Of a stretch of 55,206 nt of DNA, positions 2,219 through 25,347 are shown in pieces (the stretch's first letter is position 1; each line of letters starts with the position of its first letter). Source of the stretch: a virus (taxonomy: Duplodnaviria > Caudoviricetes); the IMG/VR virus record IMGVR_UViG_3300037478_000238, positions 1 to 55,206 of that record; one strand, given 5' to 3'. The position numbers and the translations under genes were made by a program. The notes beneath the pieces were generated by a model. The model ran no database searches, was not told where the DNA came from, and saw only the letters and a program-made list of their open reading frames with translations.

Positions 2219-2695
2219 ATGATTGAGCTACCCGGTGGGGTAACCTCCGAGCACATCCACCAGTCAAACCTGATCGAGAACATCAACGACCCGGAAGCTG
2301 ACACGGACAGTCGCTTGGCCTGGACCTGGCTGGTGGACCAGGATGTCCTGAACCCACTCACCATCCAGATCCTCCACTGGTTGATTACCCTCAACCAGCT
2401 CCCTAGTGAGTACGCCGGACGGTTCCGGGAGGTGAACGTGATGGTGGGACGCTATCATTGCCCAAACTGGAGACTGGTCCCGGAGCGGATGGGCGAGTGG
2501 CTGCATGCAATGAACCGGGAACCCAGCCAGGACCCCAAGGAAATGCACGTGCGGTTCGAGAAGATCCACCCATTCATTGACGGCAATGGTCGAACCGGAC
2601 GGATGCTCATGTGGCGGCATCAGATGATGCTTGATGTAACGCCGACCCTGCTGCGCGCCGACGAAAAAGACAGGTACTACCAGTGGTTCAAGTAG
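2219..2695 (+). CDS. Fic-domain protein (putative AMPylase)
   Basis: Intact catalytic motif HPFIDGNGRTGR. Confidence 0.93.
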   Translation: MIELPGGVTSEHIHQSNLIENINDPEADTDSRLAWTWLVDQDVLNPLTIQILHWLITLNQLPSEYAGRFREVNVMVGRYHCPNWRLVPERMGEWLHAMNREPSQDPKEMHVRFEKIHPFIDGNGRTGRMLMWRHQMMLDVTPTLLRADEKDRYYQWFK

Positions 2696-2707
2696 TTAGG
2701 AGGATCT

Positions 2708-3526
2708 ATGAATTTCAGCCTTCGTGAAACTGACCTGGATGTGCTCAACTCGGTCACCAAGTACCCGTCCATCGCCACGTACCACACCCTGAACCCGGAC
2801 GACCCGGGGATTCTTAGCGAAGAGCATGTGGTGTTCCCGCCCGACTCGGAGGTGATTGCTACCGAGAAGATCAACGGCGCCAACGCCAGGATCATCCTCA
2901 CCCCGGACAGTCAGTGGCTGATCGGGTCCCGGGAAATGCTGTTGTCGGCCAGGGGCGACCTGATTGCCAACCCGGCCGAAGGCATCGTGGAGGCCCTGCG
3001 CGACAAGGCGGAAGCCATAGTCCGTCAGCGTCAAATGGGCCGGGATATCATTCCCGGAGGTGACATCCTGGTCCTGTACGGGGAAGTTTACGGAAACAGG
3101 ATCGACGGCTGGCAGCAGTACACCGATAGTAGCCGAAGGTGGTTCGGGTTCCGGTTGTTCGACGTCATGGTTCTGAACCCGGAGCATACAGGGGTACTCG
3201 ACTGGCCCCGGGACAGGATCGCCGGCTGGCGGTCACGTGGCGGACAGCCGTTCCTGTCGGAAGCCGCACGGGTCGTGTTAGCACGTGCGTACTTGGTTGA
3301 CCTGGCCCCAAGGTTGTTTACCTTAAAGGCTAAGCAGCTTCCGGAGACCCTGTTGGACACACAGCGTTTCATGCAGCAGTTCCGTGATACCCGAGCCTCA
3401 TTGGATGGAACCATTGGCAAGGCGGAAGGTATTGTTCTGCGCACTCCCGCCCGGTCCGTGATCGTCAAGGCCCGGTTTGACGACTACCGCCGGAGCCTTC
3501 AACGTAGACAGGAGAAGAGTCGGTGA
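2708..3526 (+). CDS. RNA ligase family (Rnl2-like) nucleotidyltransferase
   Basis: Motifs EKINGAN, YGEVYG, FRLFDV, EGIVLR, IVKAR. Confidence 0.8.
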   Translation: MNFSLRETDLDVLNSVTKYPSIATYHTLNPDDPGILSEEHVVFPPDSEVIATEKINGANARIILTPDSQWLIGSREMLLSARGDLIANPAEGIVEALRDKAEAIVRQRQMGRDIIPGGDILVLYGEVYGNRIDGWQQYTDSSRRWFGFRLFDVMVLNPEHTGVLDWPRDRIAGWRSRGGQPFLSEAARVVLARAYLVDLAPRLFTLKAKQLPETLLDTQRFMQQFRDTRASLDGTIGKAEGIVLRTPARSVIVKARFDDYRRSLQRRQEKSR

Positions 3527-19561: not shown

Positions 19562-19804
19562 TCAGCCCTCCCCGCCGGTCGCATCGGCACGCCCGGCTAG
19601 GTGCCGGTAGGCGCAGTCGTACTTCTCGCCCTGCGGCTCAAGCAGGTGGAGCCGCCGCTCTACCTCCCGCTCGACTTCGGCCCAGTCGCGCTCGCCGATG
19701 TCCGGGTAATCCTCCCACTGGAGCGGGTTACGGCGGGCGGCGGCGGCGATGGCATGGCGGGCAACGTCCCGGACCGCCAGTTCGGTCATGGTCGGGTTGG
19801 TCAT
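19562..19804 (-). CDS. Hypothetical protein
   Basis: ATGA overlap with the phosphoesterase stop. Confidence 0.65.
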   Translation of the reverse strand: MTNPTMTELAVRDVARHAIAAAARRNPLQWEDYPDIGERDWAEVEREVERRLHLLEPQGEKYDCAYRHLAGRADATGGEG

Positions 19805-20352
19805 CTTCGTATCAGCTCCTCGATCTGATGACTGGAAACCGGGTAGAAGTCCCACATATCCACTCCCACATTGATCTGGCGTCCCTTCACCTGCCATAGG
19901 TTGTGGATGTGGCCATGCAGCAGCCAGCGGCCCTTGTCCGCCGGGTAGAACCCGGCAAACCTGTCCTGGTGCCGTGAGTCCTCTTCGTAGGGGAAATGGC
20001 AGAGGGTCCACGCTTCCATGTGCCATTCTTGCGGTCCGATGGTGAAATCCGCGTCCCGGTACCTATTCACATCAGCTGGGCGTACCTCCTTGTGCCCTGG
20101 CCAGCACCGGTCATGGTTGCCAGGGATTAGGATCTTGTTACCCTTCAGTTGTCGGCAGACAGGTAGCGTTTCGGCCAGCTTTCCCAGGGCCACATCACCG
20201 AGTACGAACACCGTGTCTTCTGGAGCGACACGTTCATTCCAGCGCCGGACCAGTTCCCGGTTCATGTGGTCCACATTGTAGAACGGCCGGTTGCAGTACT
20301 TGATGATGTTGGCGTGACCAAAATGCGGGTCAGCCGTGTACCAAACAGTCAT
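19801..20352 (-). CDS. Calcineurin-like metallophosphoesterase
   Basis: DPHFGH, LGD, GNHD, HGHIH. Confidence 0.92.
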   Translation of the reverse strand: MTVWYTADPHFGHANIIKYCNRPFYNVDHMNRELVRRWNERVAPEDTVFVLGDVALGKLAETLPVCRQLKGNKILIPGNHDRCWPGHKEVRPADVNRYRDADFTIGPQEWHMEAWTLCHFPYEEDSRHQDRFAGFYPADKGRWLLHGHIHNLWQVKGRQINVGVDMWDFYPVSSHQIEELIRR

Positions 20353-20370
20353 ACGTACCCCCTTCCTCGG

Positions 20371-20444
20371 GGTGTGTGACGGGATCTGCCCCCGCGAGAA
20401 CTGGAGCCACATTCCAGTGCCTAATGCTGTCCGGCTTCACACAC
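20371..20444 (-). tRNA. Atypical tRNA-His(GTG)
   Basis: Acceptor GTGTGTG/CACACAC, C discriminator, stem CTGGA/TCCAG with AT-GTG-GC loop; non-canonical T-loop GGCAGAT. Confidence 0.7.
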
Positions 20445-20744: not shown

Positions 20745-22427
20745 CTACCCCACGGAAGGGGTACGGTCAAGCCATGGCCAGTCCGCGTTGACTCCACGCT
20801 CCACCAACGGGATCAGCCTGAACATTGCATCCGACACACCGCCGTAAACGTGTCGATTGTTCTCACCAGACGGCATCATGCCCTTGGTGTAACCCACCAG
20901 GTTGATCGTGTGCATCGGCACATGCTCCGGCACACATAAAGTCACCTCACCGGCGTGCATGTCAACACTGGCCTGCTCGTCAGTGATGATGATGACCCGA
21001 TCGTGGCCGTGGTAGTGAGTACGTAATGCCTGAGCGGTACGAGTACCACCACCCAGCTTGTACTCGTGATCGAACCGGGTCCAGGCCCTTATCATCGACT
21101 CCCCCGTAACCAGCGGGAACTCCATGGTGCGGTTCGAGAACGACACCACGGTGGCGTCCTCCGCCCGCGTGGCCAGGGCCACACCGAACAGGGCAGCCTG
21201 CTGCATCTGGCCGATGCCACCCCGGATCGAGAACCGGCCGAACATCGAAGTGGACGTATCCACCAACACCAGGGTCCGTCCCGGCAGTGACGGCACGTTG
21301 GCCAGGGACAGATTCAGGGCCTTCTCCAGTGGGTACGACCACCGCAGTGATGGCACGTTCACGTGTGCGGTGATGAACCGGAGCGGAAGCTGCCGCGACC
21401 ATGCCACCTGGTGTGGGTCGGTCAGTCGATCGATCACCTGCTGGGCAACCTCATCCGACACCCCGGCCTGGTCGAAGTTACGCAGGTTCCGCAACAGTGC
21501 CATGTATCCCATGGACGGGATCATGGCCTCCCATAGGTCCTTCTTGGACACCTTGTCCCCGGCCAGTGAGAGTACATCCTCCCACGTCATCCCGGCCTCC
21601 TTCAGCCGGTTCAGGTCCAGCAGCGCCCTCGGGTCGGTCAACGCCTGCTGACGCAGTTCGCTGTTTGCCTTAATCATGTACAGGAATGTTGAGATCTCGG
21701 GGGTTGGATTGTAGCGCCGCTCCAGGGCAAACTTGAACAGTTGGTTTTGCCTCCAGAGGGTAACCTTCGGATGAGTCAGCATGATCACATCCGCGAACCG
21801 GAACCCGTGCGAAGCAGTGTCGTACTTCAGCAGGGACCGCTGCGTGTACAGATCCACTGCTGCATCGCCGATGCCCCGCTTGATCGGCATCGGCATGGTC
21901 CGGCCGTAGTGCCGGAACCAGTACGCCACGGCCTCACCAGGCTCGTCGCCGCGCCTGATCCCAGCCTTGGCCAGCAGCCGGGTGACACCCTGGCCATACT
22001 TCGGATGCAGGCCGGCACCGCCGGTCACATGGGCCTTGTTGAACTTGTCGGTGTGGAACTTACGGTGCAGGGCCAGGAACTGCCCATCCGACAGGTCGTT
22101 GACAGCCTTGGCCGCCTCCAGGCCCAGCACCAGGGACACGGTGCGAAGGTTCTGCTTGTCACGCAGCCACCACACCAGCTCCAGTGTCCACGCCGGGTCC
22201 TCAACCGCCACCTGGCGGACCAGGCCCAGCAACCGGTTGTCGCGGTCGTCCATCAACTCGTAGAACGTGTCCGCGTTCATGAAGTTGGACGCGGACAGTA
22301 GCAGCAGCTCCGACTTCGGGTCGCGGTCGTAACCGGTGGCCCCCTCGTAGGTGGCGCCGGTCCGTCCAGTGGAACGCACCGGACTGCGGGCCTGGGTACG
22401 GGTCCGGCGAGTGTTGAACTTTGCCAT
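20745..22427 (-). CDS. rsr: Ro60-related TROVE + vWA RNA-binding protein (560 aa)
   Basis: T.EGA.GY..DPKSEL, DTFYE, MGYMALLRNLRNF, SRQLPLRF, vWA LVDTSTSM, GGT, IITDEQ; GGAGGAG RBS. Confidence 0.95.
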   Translation of the reverse strand: MAKFNTRRTRTQARSPVRSTGRTGATYEGATGYDRDPKSELLLLSASNFMNADTFYELMDDRDNRLLGLVRQVAVEDPAWTLELVWWLRDKQNLRTVSLVLGLEAAKAVNDLSDGQFLALHRKFHTDKFNKAHVTGGAGLHPKYGQGVTRLLAKAGIRRGDEPGEAVAYWFRHYGRTMPMPIKRGIGDAAVDLYTQRSLLKYDTASHGFRFADVIMLTHPKVTLWRQNQLFKFALERRYNPTPEISTFLYMIKANSELRQQALTDPRALLDLNRLKEAGMTWEDVLSLAGDKVSKKDLWEAMIPSMGYMALLRNLRNFDQAGVSDEVAQQVIDRLTDPHQVAWSRQLPLRFITAHVNVPSLRWSYPLEKALNLSLANVPSLPGRTLVLVDTSTSMFGRFSIRGGIGQMQQAALFGVALATRAEDATVVSFSNRTMEFPLVTGESMIRAWTRFDHEYKLGGGTRTAQALRTHYHGHDRVIIITDEQASVDMHAGEVTLCVPEHVPMHTINLVGYTKGMMPSGENNRHVYGGVSDAMFRLIPLVERGVNADWPWLDRTPSVG

Positions 22428-22453: not shown

Positions 22454-22530
22454 TGGTCGGGATGACAGGACTTGAACCTGCGGCTTCCTGGCCCCAAACC
22501 AGGCACTCTTCCAATCTGAGCTACATCCCG
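22454..22530 (-). tRNA. tRNA-Pro(TGG), CCA encoded
   Basis: CGGGATG/CATCCCG-ACCA, TT-TGG-GG. Confidence 0.95.
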
Positions 22531-22817: not shown

Positions 22818-22819
22818 AG

Positions 22820-22901
22820 TGCGGGTGAAGGGATTCGAACCCCCTCAGCGCGTGCACCTGGTTTACAGCCAGGCCCGGCTCTCCCACTCCGGCGCACCCG
22901 C
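22820..22901 (-). tRNA. tRNA-Tyr(GTA)
   Basis: GCGGGTG/CACCCGC, CT-GTA-AA, long variable arm, GTTCGAAT. Confidence 0.9.
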
Positions 22902-22904
22902 ATG

Positions 22905-23040
22905 GATTCCCGAGAAAATATTGACATCCGAAACGTAGCGCTCTGCCATTGAGCTACATCTGGTGAACCAGAAGATAGGACTCGAACCTATAACCACTCG
23001 ATTAGTAGTCGAAGTAACGGCTGTCTTCGCATCGGGAACC
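22905..23040 (-). ncRNA. yrlA: YrlA-type Y RNA (circularly permuted tRNA mimic)
   Basis: Closing stem GGTTCCCGA/TCGGGAATC; GTTACTTC; T-arm ATAGG-TTCGAGT-CCTAT, loop-closed acceptor-like stem CTTCTGG-ttca-CCAGATG, then D-arm TAGCTCAATGGCAGAGC; next to ro60. Confidence 0.88.
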
Positions 23041-23090
23041 TATGTAGTTTTGAAAGTCTCACCAGTCCCGGGGGGCGGCGAGAAGTTGAA

Positions 23091-23230
23091 GACGCCTGAG
23101 GAAAATCGATCCCGGATAGCTGCGAGGCGTTACCCTCGACGGTGGGACTCGAACCCACAACTCATTCTCCGTAAGGAATGTGATCTACCATTTGATCTAC
23201 GAAGTATCCGTGATCTGCGCATCAGGCGTC
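23091..23230 (-). ncRNA. Y RNA variant with a non-permuted D/anticodon/T-arm module
   Basis: GACGCCTGA/TCAGGCGTC stem, TGCGCA-GATC-a-CGGA-TACTTC scaffold, D-arm GATC/GATC, CATTC-cttacgga-GAATG, GTGGG-TTCGAGT-CCCAC. Confidence 0.75.
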
Positions 23231-23234
23231 CTGG

Positions 23235-23447
23235 TCAGATCTGGGTACGGAACTCCTTCATGAACTTCGACCACGAGTCCGGGTCGAAACTCAGATGGAT
23301 GTCCGGCAGCTGGTTGTTGCGGACCAGTACCTCGGTGGTTCGATGGGCCACTTCCACGCACAGGTCGTTGTCGCACCTGCTGGACTTGCGCCAGGTTACT
23401 TCTGCGCAGTTCCCGTTGTCACACCTGCTGGACTTACGCCAGTTCAC
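23235..23447 (-). CDS. DUF397-family protein with tandem WRKSS motif (70 aa)
   Basis: GTG start; WRKSSRCDNGNCAEV / WRKSSRCDNDLCVEVA..VRN..L.F...W..F; 48-bp internal duplication. Confidence 0.9.
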   Translation of the reverse strand: MNWRKSSRCDNGNCAEVTWRKSSRCDNDLCVEVAHRTTEVLVRNNQLPDIHLSFDPDSWSKFMKEFRTQI

Positions 23448-23558: not shown

Positions 23559-23587
23559 ATAATAAAACTGGACAAGATATCTGGTAA
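23559..23587 (-). promoter_or_regulatory. Candidate promoter of the RNA island, overlapping the right boundary repeat (23571..23586)
   Basis: TTACCA-N17-TATTAT on the minus strand. Confidence 0.4.
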
Positions 23588-23661
23588 CCTTGCCAACCAG
23601 AAGCGCGTGCTGGCGTGAGGGCCGACGTGGAAAGTTAAACTTGCCACGGAAGGCCCCGAAA

Positions 23662-25347
23662 ATGGCTTTTGTCATCCCAGAAGACCTTGCAGTCTTCAGC
23701 ACCGAAGGACTCAGCGACCTTCGCCGGGTAGCCGCTGCCGAGCGGGACGAGCTACGCGCCTCAACCACCGCCGATGCCATCACCGACGAGCAACTGGACC
23801 GGCTGGAAACCCTGGTCGCGTTCATCGGCACCGCCGATGAGGAGATCACGGGCCGACAGGCACGCCAGGCCCGGTTCGACGCCACCGCACCGCCGCCGGC
23901 GCCAGAACCAGCCCCCGCCTCTGAACCTGAGCCCGAGCCTGAGCCGGTCACCGCCAGCGGCGACCCGGAACCCGCGCCAGACAGTGGACAGGATGAGCCA
24001 CCGGCGCAACCAGCCCCGGCAACCCGGGTGGACGTGGCGGCCCTGGCCGCCGGCAGTGACGGGACAACCGGCACCGCCGACGCCCTGCCGCCGTCCGCGT
24101 TCGGTGACCATGTCATCGTCGCCGCAGCCGACATCCCCGGCGTCACCACCGGAGCCGAGCTGGACAGCTGGGATGCGGTAGCCACCGCATTCGTCAACCG
24201 GACCCGGGCCTACTCCGGACGCACCCCGACCCGGCACGCCGTGGCCGAGATCCAGCGCCGGTTCGGCACCGAGTTCACCATCACCCAGGCCGAATCCCGA
24301 GACAAGGTCGCGGCAAACAACAAGCTTCAGCATGTGATGAATGAGGCCCGACTTCCGGGCGGCTCGCTGCTTGCGGCCAACGGGTGGTGCTCCCCATCGG
24401 AGAACCTGTACACCACCTGTAACCAGATCGGCACCGATGGCATGTGGTCTGGTCCGGAGGTGTCCGCGCCACGAGGTGGGATCAACCACAACCAGGGCAT
24501 CGAGTTCGATGCGGTGTTCGGTGACGGCTCCGGGTTCACGATCATGACCGAGGATGACGTGATCTCCGGAGAGGTGAAGACCTGCCGCGAGGTCCCATGC
24601 CCGCCGTTTGTGGACGACCGGCTGAAGATCAGCGCCCTGTGCCTGACCGGCAGCATCCTGCAGAACCGCACCTACCCGGAGTTCGTCTCCGAGTTCATCC
24701 AGGGCTTCATGGCCGTGGGCGCCCACAACCTCAACCGGCAGATCATCGCCGATGTGGTTGCCGGCTCCACCGCCGTGGACCTGACCGCTGCTGCCCCATG
24801 GAACAGCGACTCGTCAGTGGTCAGCCAGACCCTGTCGGCCGTTGCCCACGCCATCGTGGACATCAAGTACCGGCTGCGGCTGCCCCAGTCCAGCACCCTG
24901 GAAGTGGTGCTGCCGTTCTGGGTCATCGAGCAGTACCGGGCCGACTACATCCGTCGCAACGGGGTGAGCGACCCGAACCTGGCCGACGCCCAGCTGGCCG
25001 CCTGGTTCGCCACCCGTAGCGCCCGGGCGCAGTACGTCTACGACTGGCAGGACGCCTTCTCCGACTCCGGGGTCGGCTACGGGGCCGACGACGCCCTGAC
25101 AACCGTGCCCACGTCGGTGGACTTCCTGGTCTACCCGGCCGGCACCTGGGTCCTGGCCCGGCTGGACGTGATCCGGCTCGACTCCGTCTACGACAGCGTC
25201 AACCTGCCGCAGAACCTGGTCACCCAGCTGTTCATGGAAGACGGATTCCGGGCAATGCGCATGTGCCCACTGTCGCGGGTGTACACGGTGCCGATCTGCC
25301 CAACCGGCCACACCTCCGACCTTCAGACGGTCAGCTGCGGATCGTAA
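23662..25347 (+). CDS. Major capsid (hexamer) protein
   Basis: Scaffold-like N-terminus, then L.A.GWCSPSE..Y, RGG, KTC.EVPCP.F, YPE, QYVYDWQ, YPAGTW as in cluster-B-like capsids. Confidence 0.85.
   Translation: MAFVIPEDLAVFSTEGLSDLRRVAAAERDELRASTTADAITDEQLDRLETLVAFIGTADEEITGRQARQARFDATAPPPAPEPAPASEPEPEPEPVTASGDPEPAPDSGQDEPPAQPAPATRVDVAALAAGSDGTTGTADALPPSAFGDHVIVAAADIPGVTTGAELDSWDAVATAFVNRTRAYSGRTPTRHAVAEIQRRFGTEFTITQAESRDKVAANNKLQHVMNEARLPGGSLLAANGWCSPSENLYTTCNQIGTDGMWSGPEVSAPRGGINHNQGIEFDAVFGDGSGFTIMTEDDVISGEVKTCREVPCPPFVDDRLKISALCLTGSILQNRTYPEFVSEFIQGFMAVGAHNLNRQIIADVVAGSTAVDLTAAAPWNSDSSVVSQTLSAVAHAIVDIKYRLRLPQSSTLEVVLPFWVIEQYRADYIRRNGVSDPNLADAQLAAWFATRSARAQYVYDWQDAFSDSGVGYGADDALTTVPTSVDFLVYPAGTWVLARLDVIRLDSVYDSVNLPQNLVTQLFMEDGFRAMRMCPLSRVYTVPICPTGHTSDLQTVSCGS

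Follow-up and report, generated by a model that had tools for sequence, protein, structure and literature searches.

A putative Y RNA carrying a tRNA mimic in natural arm order beside a phage Ro gene

The RNA element and its locus

The DNA analyzed here, called the window throughout, is the whole of the IMG/VR virus record IMGVR_UViG_3300037478_000238 (55,206 bp, with inverted terminal repeats); near-identical DNA is found in sediment and soil metagenome runs. Its minus strand contains a cluster that reads, from 5′ to 3′, as a promoter-like site, a small DUF397 open reading frame (ORF), the RNA element discussed here, a YrlA-type RNA, the transfer RNA (tRNA) genes tRNA-Tyr and tRNA-Pro, a Ro60/TROVE gene, two tRNA-Arg genes, a gene for a calcineurin-type phosphoesterase and tRNA-Gly. 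The element is 140 nt long, lies on the same strand as the TROVE gene, 660 nt upstream of it, and adjoins the YrlA-type RNA. It is a conserved structured RNA gene of a Ro-linked family: a stem of the Y type closes it, and selection acts on the tertiary signature of its tRNA-like body. Distally, the D arm, anticodon-like arm, variable (V) loop and T arm are retained and covary, and so does the 15:48 pair; the acceptor stem is cut to 1–5 bp, and beyond it the 3′ strand forms an extra hairpin, usually with a GNRA cap, before it returns to the Y stem. We consider it probable that the element is a Ro-associated Y RNA of a conserved, widespread class that carries a tRNA mimic in natural arm order as its effector module.

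Fold and parts of the element

In the predicted fold, the 5′ and 3′ ends pair into a long stem, which encloses, in this order, the D arm, the anticodon-like arm, the V loop, the T arm, an acceptor remnant and the extra hairpin, which we call Z (Table 1). The folding energy of the 140 nt is −51.3 kcal/mol (z = −2.86), and 1 of 200 shuffled sequences was equally stable. An earlier note on this DNA had proposed a tRNA body with unpermuted arms and an extra hairpin inside a Y scaffold beside TROVE, and every feature that it described is present at these positions; the arm order is seen in the fold, in covariation and in the match to a family model described below. The acceptor stem is indeed vestigial, with two contiguous pairs and no CCA, and the 8-nt loop that the note placed on a CAUUC/GAAUG arm is present on the minus strand. 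The neighbouring RNA is, as proposed there, a permuted YrlA distinct from the element: its arms run T, closed acceptor, D, and it gives an Rfam YrlA match (22937–22998) of 32.2 bits, which falls short of the family's gathering score, 69 (E = 8.2e-5 when 1.2 kb is searched).

Table 1. Parts of the element and neighbouring features, in window coordinates
Feature	Position	Strand	Sequence or pairing	Basis or remark
Natural-order tRNA-like Y RNA	23091..23230	−		140 nt
Outer Y stem, 5′ strand	23230–23222	−	GACGCCUGA; pairs with 23099–23091	minimum free energy (MFE) fold; family covariation of the outer helix
Presumed Ro-binding motif, 5′ strand	23215..23223	−	GAUGCGCAG	conserved; binding suggested by the shared motif
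Middle Y stem	23215–23212	−	GAUC; pairs with 23111–23108	MFE fold
Inner Y stem	23210–23205 / 23118–23113	−	CGGAUA / UAUCCG	MFE fold; inner helix covaries family-wide
UACUUC junction motif	23201..23206	−	UACUUC	common to YrlA-type and short Y RNAs
G7, U8, A9 and D arm	23182..23200	−		Rfam tRNA alignment
D arm proper	23197–23182	−	GAUC / loop AAAUGGUA / GAUC	
Anticodon-like arm	23163..23180 (loop 23175–23168)	−	CAUUC/GAAUG; 8-nt loop CUUACGGA	5-bp stem
Variable loop	23159..23162	−	AGUU, 4 nt	last U can make a Levitt pair with D-loop A15
T arm	23142..23158	−	GUGGG / UUCGAGU / CCCAC	Rfam tRNA alignment
Acceptor remnant	3′ side 23140..23141	−	C23201–G23140, G23200–C23141	2 bp; 3′ side is C66, G67
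Extra hairpin Z	23123..23138	−	CGAGG / GUAACG / CCUCG	MFE fold; follows the T arm
Middle and inner Y stems, 3′ strands	23108..23118	−	UAUCCG, G, GAUC	
Outer Y stem, 3′ strand	23099–23091	−	UCAGGCGUC	fold, compensatory changes in L006/L007, covariation
Promoter-like site	23559..23587	−	TTACCA, 17 nt, TATTAT	upstream of the small DUF397 ORF
Spacer hairpin between the two Y RNAs	23046–23090	−	CUCGCCG...CUGGUGAG	conserved
Permuted YrlA-type Y RNA	~22905..23045	−	V hairpin, T arm, closed acceptor hairpin, D arm	Rfam and fold
tRNA-Tyr(GUA)	22819..22901	−		ARAGORN and Rfam; between the Y RNAs and Ro
tRNA-Pro(UGG)	22454..22530	−		ARAGORN and Rfam; directly upstream of Ro
Ro60/TROVE gene	20745..22427	−		560 aa from the ATG at 22427; Pfam TROVE 72.6 bits
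Calcineurin-type metallophosphoesterase	19801–20412	−		phrog_547, 176.7 bits
Fic/DOC-family ORF, then directly RNA-ligase-family ORF	2219–3526	+		57 bits; PF09414, 62.7 bits
Major head protein gene	23590–25347	+		other strand

The Rfam tRNA model recognizes the tRNA-like body as a local match (23140–23201 on the minus strand, model positions 6–65 of 71) with 37.2 bits, over the gathering score of 29, and with E = 2.8e-4 over the whole 55-kb window. ARAGORN makes no tRNA call at the element, and the Rfam YrlA model finds no match in 23091–23230 even at E up to 10. The 8-nt loop CUUACGGA holds a UACG turn of the UNCG type, and in the ViennaRNA fold the anticodon-like stem reaches into it; the loop does not look like a working anticodon loop. 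The T stem (5 bp), the acceptor remnant (2 bp) and Z (5 bp) together make 12 bp, the length of the acceptor/T helix of a tRNA, and Z may therefore rebuild a capped acceptor arm, which is a structural guess.

The conserved 5′-strand motif GAUGCGCAG has GAUGCGAAG as its counterpart in the neighbouring YrlA-type RNA, and the Y RNA arrays of Streptomyces, Gordonia and Arthrobacter phages have GAUGCGYAG or GGUGCGNAG in this place. GAUGCGCAG resembles GNCGAAN0-1G, which Chen et al. 2014 connect with the binding of Rsr; the UACUUC junction corresponds to the conserved YUAY of YrlA described in the same paper (PMC4201824).

A widespread family with covarying arms

About 30 phage contigs and 44 records of bacterial genomes show the same architecture, next to Ro genes that differ greatly in sequence. 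A DNA pattern consisting of UACUUC and a D arm matched 54 stretches in IMG/VR, which were sorted by eye: 34 have the architecture, giving 31 distinct elements besides that of the window, and the other 20 comprise one true tRNA with 7/7 acceptor pairs and 19 unrelated sequences. A narrower pattern matched 44 times in genome_contigs, and all 44 matches have the architecture; their carriers are Saprospiraceae and other Bacteroidota, Verrucomicrobiota, Holophagaceae, Lachnospiraceae, Prevotella and others. Lachnospiraceae bacterium A4, Lewinella sp. W8 and Ereboglobus sp. PH5-10, whose record titles lack 'MAG', are among these carriers. Scanning metagenome_contigs with the D arm of the window clade gave one member, of a different clade. 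A blastn search with a low-GC family member against GenBank phages returned true tRNAs only; BLAST is too insensitive for this family.

Both family alignments argue for the fold. Among 32 phage sequences, 89.1% of the cells are paired and 25 of 29 pairs are compensated, with a covariation of 0.590 (0.198 in shuffles and at most 0.191 with slid partners). An alignment of 74 sequences from which the window clade was excluded gives 92.4% paired cells, 23/26 compensated pairs and a covariation of 0.689 (shuffles 0.202; slid partners at most 0.185). R1, a family model, matches the window element over its full length with 84.6 bits. R2, a covariance model of 150 positions built from the 74 other family members with the window clade left out, has its top match in the window at 23081–23235 on the minus strand, covering model positions 1–150 of 150 with 72.3 bits (E ~1e-15, a rough calibration). 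The true tRNAs of the window match only model positions ~33–114 of R2, with scores of at most 53.7 bits. Because R2 was built without the window clade and finds the element at full length as its top match, the resemblance goes beyond chance. The same result bears on the reading of the element as a decayed tRNA pseudogene between chance inverted repeats: the tRNA match is partial and many tRNA genes lie nearby, but it is contradicted by flanking stems that covary across the family, by the neighbouring Ro genes and by the R2 match over the full length, and we give it next to no credence.

Further counts cover 76 distinct family members. All five pairs of the anticodon stem covary, with 98.1% of cells paired in the 74-sequence alignment, and the stem is complete (5/5 pairs) in 67 members. 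Its loop has 7 nt in 59/76 and 5–9 nt in the remaining 17/76; the 7-nt loops have U33 in 53/59 and a purine at 37 in 56/59, and they present 24 different triplets. The T stem is paired in 99.4–99.5% of cells, with four of five pairs compensated, and the D stem is paired throughout the family (100%), a value set in part by the search patterns. Positions 15 and 48, the Levitt pair, are complementary in 51/76 members (shuffled mean 22.7, maximum 38 in 10,000 shuffles). After the T arm, 56 members have a hairpin of 4 bp or more, where 24.9 are expected from shuffles, and 29 of these hairpins are GNRA-capped. Pair 7:66 in the 32 phage sequences is GC in 25, UA in 5, AU in 1 and GU in 1. Counted from this pair, contiguous acceptor pairs number 1–5; none of the 76 members has 7/7 acceptor pairs, and one has CCA at positions 74–76. 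UACUUC and some of the D arm are prescribed by the search patterns, which for the bacterial set prescribe the entire D stem; the statistics of the anticodon arm, T arm and Y stem are free of this bias.

Because the loops range from 5 to 9 nt, the triplets number 24 and no member has a full acceptor stem, the element is best read as a tRNA mimic and not a decoder. According to the opposite reading, the element is a real tRNA gene or precursor whose outer stems form a leader–trailer duplex, from which RNase P, RNase Z and a CCA-adding enzyme would release a working tRNA. It could draw on the Rfam tRNA score over the gathering score (37.2 against 29), on tRNA calls by ARAGORN for 17 of the 32 phage members, on one copy in csAssE-Sib (OR575929.1) that has 6/7 acceptor pairs when read by eye, and on the YrlA of M. 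smegmatis, which according to the text of PMC4201824 is cleaved by RNase P and receives CCA. The window element itself speaks against this, since its acceptor stem has two contiguous pairs and its loop 8 nt, CCA is missing and ARAGORN does not call it; so does a family without a single 7/7 acceptor stem, with CCA in 1/76, with 17/76 loops of 5–9 nt and with conserved, covarying Y stems. We regard a real tRNA as very improbable here; the csAssE-Sib copy suggests that some lineages may be nearer to processable tRNAs.

Two side observations concern single members of the family. The element at L119:2379-2503 has a short internal duplication of the D arm (GCAGAGCAGAGCA) when compared with its near-twin L105, which may be an assembly artefact or a decaying copy. 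In one bacterial locus that bears the element, a GOLLD RNA is found at L171:6910-7332 (152.7 bits).

Close relatives and the origin of the tRNA-like body

The Ro protein of the window has 43–44% identity to the 'Ro-like RNA binding protein' of Streptomyces and Gordonia phages, and the host of the phage is therefore likely to be actinobacterial. A single-protein search of IMG/VR with the window Ro gave no matches, so an alignment-based Ro search was needed; it yielded 80 loci. A megablast of the region against GenBank phages found no matches. Two of the loci, L006 (85% Ro identity) and L007 (79–81%), contain the same RNA pair in the same order upstream of Ro. The D, anticodon and T stems of both are identical to those of the window. 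The anticodon loop is another in each: L006 has 7 nt, CUGCAAA, and L007 has 8 nt, CUUUCGGA. Their Z hairpins are ACGGGG/CCCUGU and GCAGGG/CCCUGU with GCAA caps, compared with CGAGG/CCUCG in the window. The Y and Z stems thus vary with compensation, and the tRNA-like body varies in its loops alone. In contigs from four DNA runs (X3 and X4 among them), only variants like L006 or L007 were found, and changes in the body are again confined to loops. The outer stems, whose loss in homologs would have counted against a Y RNA, are kept by compensatory changes in L006 and L007 and covary family-wide.

The earlier note had also supposed that a tRNA-Arg(ACG)-like gene with one extra loop base was captured into a Y RNA. 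L006 and L007 have other loops on identical stems, which does not fit this idea, and the body is no nearer to tRNA-Arg(ACG) (40/58 aligned positions) than to other tRNAs of the window (tRNA-Gly, 40/58; tRNA-Arg(CCG), 44/61); distant family members, with 43–44/58, are as close or closer. We therefore reject this capture. Because the architecture is common to at least 76 phage and bacterial elements, any capture of a tRNA would be old and family-wide rather than an event in the window phage.

Within the actinophage-type Ro loci surveyed, the natural order is confined to this small clade. Y-type 5′ motifs were collected from the window, from 80 Ro loci of IMG/VR and from 4 of GenBank phages; among the 211 motifs, a D arm precedes a T arm only in the window, L006 and L007. 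Model R1, run over the same 85 sources, has strong full-length matches in these three only; its other 'full-length' rows (26–60 bits) were rejected as true tRNAs with chance alignment of the flanks, L002 having been inspected by eye. Many actinophage Ro loci (L002–L005 and many of L008–L085) contain arrays of three to five Y RNAs, which are short or permuted with an anticodon-like V hairpin. They are mostly unannotated or are partly labelled as tRNA, as in Alone3 (tRNA-Ser(gct)) and VanLee (tRNA-Arg(tct)), where the labels overlap YrlA-type RNAs.

Some features of the window surround the element itself. The promoter-like site comes from a consensus scan only (two sites against 0.3 expected), which is no evidence of function. 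The spacer between the two Y RNAs forms a conserved hairpin that reads CUCACCG...CUGGUGAG in L006 and L007, is not followed by a T-run and may be a processing or punctuation element.

Linkage to Ro

The earlier note had suggested a search for the same architecture near other TROVE genes, and such genes are indeed found: a Ro ORF is present in 23 of the 31 non-window phage loci and in 28 of the 44 bacterial loci, as against 0/20 of the pattern matches that lack the architecture. These Ro proteins have only 22–30% identity to that of the window. An iterated search with hidden Markov models (HMMs), with stop codons read as X, adds L111 as a 24th phage locus, and L092 is a 25th, with Ro on the same contig, in L007; among the bacterial loci, L172 and L173 gain an HMM match in the same way. 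The Ro homolog of L111 lies upstream of its element and is found only with stops read as X (E = 3.4e-160), and this suggests in-frame stops, due to a frameshift, a broken gene or the use of an alternative genetic code. Dense tRNA arrays lie beside Ro in seven bacterial-genome loci with the element (L149, L152, L156, L158, L164, L179 and L183), with ~9 to more than 25 tRNA hits per 8 kb; the bacterial loci of this kind may be prophages or mobile tRNA-array islands.

Convincing members were not found in the Ro loci of Thermus phage phiLo, Xanthomonas MET23-P3, Caulobacter CcrPW, Microcystis Mvi-JY20, PhiCrAssBcn17, a Rhizobium phage and a Vibrio phage; the matches in the Xanthomonas and Caulobacter loci are YrlA-type RNAs and not of the natural-order class.

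Several observations count against a Ro-associated Y RNA with a tRNA-like body. Seven phage loci have no Ro match within the locus itself (L092, L095, L107, L114, L126, L134 and L139, of which L107 and L139 are on one contig). The element lies near the end of the locus in L114 and L134, which limits the search there, and most other loci without Ro end within ~1.3 kb of the element; in L095, L107, L126 and L139 (three contigs), there is no Ro within ~1.6–4.4 kb on either side. Among the sequencing runs listed with the window stretch, none is an RNA run. The extra hairpin is absent in 20/76 members, and the invariance of UACUUC and the D-stem statistics arise partly by construction, because the search patterns fix them. 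The proposed binding of Ro has an indirect basis, in position and a shared motif. Lastly, RNAalifold on the three close sequences only (window, L006 and L007) favours a pairing of CUUCGUA with the anticodon-loop region. This alternative fold is rejected by the covariation of the D and anticodon stems in the wider family, which alone settles the choice for the cloverleaf.

How the RNA may act

Taken together, the element would be transcribed from the minus strand within the cluster of DUF397, Y RNA, tRNA and Ro genes, and its Y stem would bind the phage Ro ring. The L-shaped, tRNA-like end, with the elbow and the anticodon-like arm free and the acceptor end blocked, might then be recognized by a tRNA-binding partner, so that the element either tethers Ro to this partner or competes with tRNAs for it. 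It would be neither aminoacylated nor decoding. Since the Ro-binding stem takes the place of the anticodon stem in YrlA and of the acceptor stem in the element, the two Y RNAs of this phage may present the same kind of elbow to Ro in two geometries. There is precedent in two reports for tRNA-like modules in Y RNAs and for Y RNAs as tethers between Ro and effectors (PMC4201824; bioRxiv 10.1101/312249).

A more specific version of this reading, and not exclusive of it, is that the element serves as a decoy: a competitive inhibitor of host anticodon nucleases, or of enzymes that modify or repair the anticodon arm, which would protect phage and host tRNAs during infection. It exposes a real anticodon-like arm, unlike YrlA, and most 7-nt loops in the family carry the U33 and purine-37 signature (53/59 and 56/59); the loci are rich in tRNA genes or arrays, and the phage encodes an RNA-ligase-family protein (PF09414) as well as the phosphoesterase in the Ro cluster. 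Hughes et al. 2020 propose that YrlA's tRNA-like domain may be a competitive inhibitor of an anticodon nuclease, and link rsr-yrlBA-rtcBA to tRNA damage (PMC7790460). The 8-nt, UNCG-type turn of the window and L007 could perhaps bind such an enzyme without being a normal substrate. On the other side, the triplets are scattered (24 kinds in 59 loops) and 17/76 loops do not have 7 nt, so that no particular nuclease target is mimicked; the window loop resembles no natural anticodon loop, and RtcB was not found in the record. As a specific role, a decoy seems rather unlikely to us.

Two observations on the gene content of the window touch this subject. The RNA-ligase-family ORF follows directly on a Fic/DOC-family ORF, on the plus strand and elsewhere in the record. 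The metallophosphoesterase is separated from Ro by the two tRNA-Arg genes of the same cluster, and in Arthrobacter phage Atuin a 'phosphatase' likewise adjoins the tRNA/Ro cluster; as a speculation, the window enzyme might be an RNA end-healing enzyme.

The tRNA-like body could also be a stability module only, a compact fold that keeps nucleases off the Y RNA and itself binds no partner, which is the first possibility raised for YrlA in the text of Chen et al. 2014 (PMC4201824). Free variation of the anticodon triplet and loop length would suit this, as would an extra hairpin that 20/76 members can dispense with. The covariation of the tertiary pair and the U33/R37 signature suggest instead selection for a tRNA-like surface, and short Y RNAs without a tRNA module coexist in the same arrays; we find a stability role alone improbable. 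The Ro-associated Y RNA with a tRNA mimic as effector module remains the reading that we prefer.

From this reading, a broader proposal follows, to which we lean by a modest degree: that the elements form a second widespread and undescribed class of tRNA-mimicking Y RNAs, present in phages, prophage-like tRNA-array islands and bacteria, with the Ro stem on the acceptor end of a complete tRNA body, whose anticodon arm and elbow stay free, as a mirror of YrlA, and routinely annotated as tRNA, apparent suppressor and SeC tRNAs included, and that their fast-changing anticodon loop may reflect conflict with host enzymes acting on the anticodon arm. It would widen the design space of bacterial and phage Y RNAs, as the same Ro scaffold would bear tRNA mimics of two opposite topologies, at times as neighbours in one phage. 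It also offers a handle on the binding partner of the tRNA-like end: a partner that depends on the anticodon arm could bind the natural-order class and not YrlA, and one that needs only the elbow could bind both. A Ro ribonucleoprotein with a free anticodon-like arm would sit among phage tRNA clusters, with an RNA-ligase-family gene elsewhere in the record, which is a setting for conflicts over tRNA cleavage and repair.

Consequences for annotation

The Rfam tRNA model passes its threshold on elements of this family, which makes them a practical annotation problem; at the gathering threshold, Rfam gives only partial tRNA matches on the elements of the bacterial loci and no YrlA match. The 17 tRNA calls by ARAGORN on phage members include two of 'SeC(tca)' (L097 and L114) and one of 'Stop(tta)' (L139); L107 has the UCA triplet too and receives no call. 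Such SeC and Stop calls could be mistaken for suppressor tRNAs, and counts of phage tRNAs, together with conclusions drawn from 'suppressor tRNAs', could be inflated by natural-order Y RNAs. GenBank already contains examples. A strong family match in the Crassvirales phage cr111_1 is labelled tRNA-Gln. In csAssE-Sib, two tandem members directly upstream of a 'Ro sixty-related protein' gene (L190:2600-2900) are annotated as tRNA-Tyr and tRNA-Lys and are called tRNA by ARAGORN also; both copies have four to five extra bases after UACUUCG.

Comparison with known RNAs

Canonical tRNA (RF00005) shares with the element the D arm, a 5-bp anticodon stem, a V loop of 4–5 nt, a T arm with UUCRANY, U8-A9 and G18-G19, and most family members have the U33/R37 loop signature. 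In the family, however, the acceptor stem has 1–5 contiguous pairs, discriminator and CCA are missing, and the 3′ side leads on into a hairpin and the Y stem. The element thus lacks the 7-bp acceptor stem with a free 3′ end and the 7-nt loop that mark a tRNA (8 nt in the window and L007).

Thermus phage phiLo encodes two Y-like RNAs, Yrl1 and Yrl2, which lie upstream of the phage Ro and bind it and, together with Ro, the host PNPase; the accessible text of the report describes them as stem/bulge/stem RNAs with a CGAA motif and mentions no tRNA-like body (PMC12135203). R1 and R2 have no match in the phiLo Ro locus (L186) at the thresholds used.

Rfam has no family for a natural-order tRNA-like Y RNA. 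The earlier note knew of no described Y RNA with such an architecture, and this is mostly right: a full-text literature search gave no description of the natural-order class, the supplementary candidate lists of Chen et al. 2014 and two reviews, where prior descriptions are possible, lying outside that search. It needs qualifying in one respect, as Yrn1 (below) has been modelled in the same arm order with incomplete arms.

The closest described RNAs are YrlA and the Yrn1 of Deinococcus radiodurans. YrlA (RF02553) is likewise encoded beside Ro/Rsr and has a long stem of its 5′ and 3′ ends, a 5′-strand motif followed by YUAY/UACUUC, and a tRNA-like end that comprises T and D arms and the elbow nucleotides, with covariation at 15:48 and without a free CCA end. 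Its D-arm consensus is nearly the same (GUAGCUCAauuuGGUAGAGC in Rfam YrlA; GUAGCUCAauUGGUAGAGC in R1 and R2), and a strict regular expression finds both kinds of RNA in one locus in 19/75 loci, the window included. The difference lies in topology. In YrlA the order is V, T, closed acceptor hairpin, D; its Ro-binding stem stands where a tRNA has the anticodon stem, and according to Wang et al. 2018 it 'lacks the anticodon loop' (bioRxiv 10.1101/312249). In the element the order is D, anticodon arm, V loop, T, and the Ro-binding stem stands where the acceptor stem would be; the element departs from the definition of YrlA both in arm order and in giving no match with the Rfam model.

Yrn1 is Ro-bound and, in the published drawing, has a D-like arm, an 'anticodon arm' with a 5-bp stem and a T arm, in the order opposite to YrlA (PMC4201824). 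Chen et al. 2014 describe its D arm as incomplete and its loop as 6 nt long; a V arm is missing, and dihydrouridine was not detected in it (PMC4201824). Compared with this published description, the element has a complete, covarying D arm, a V loop and a Levitt pair.

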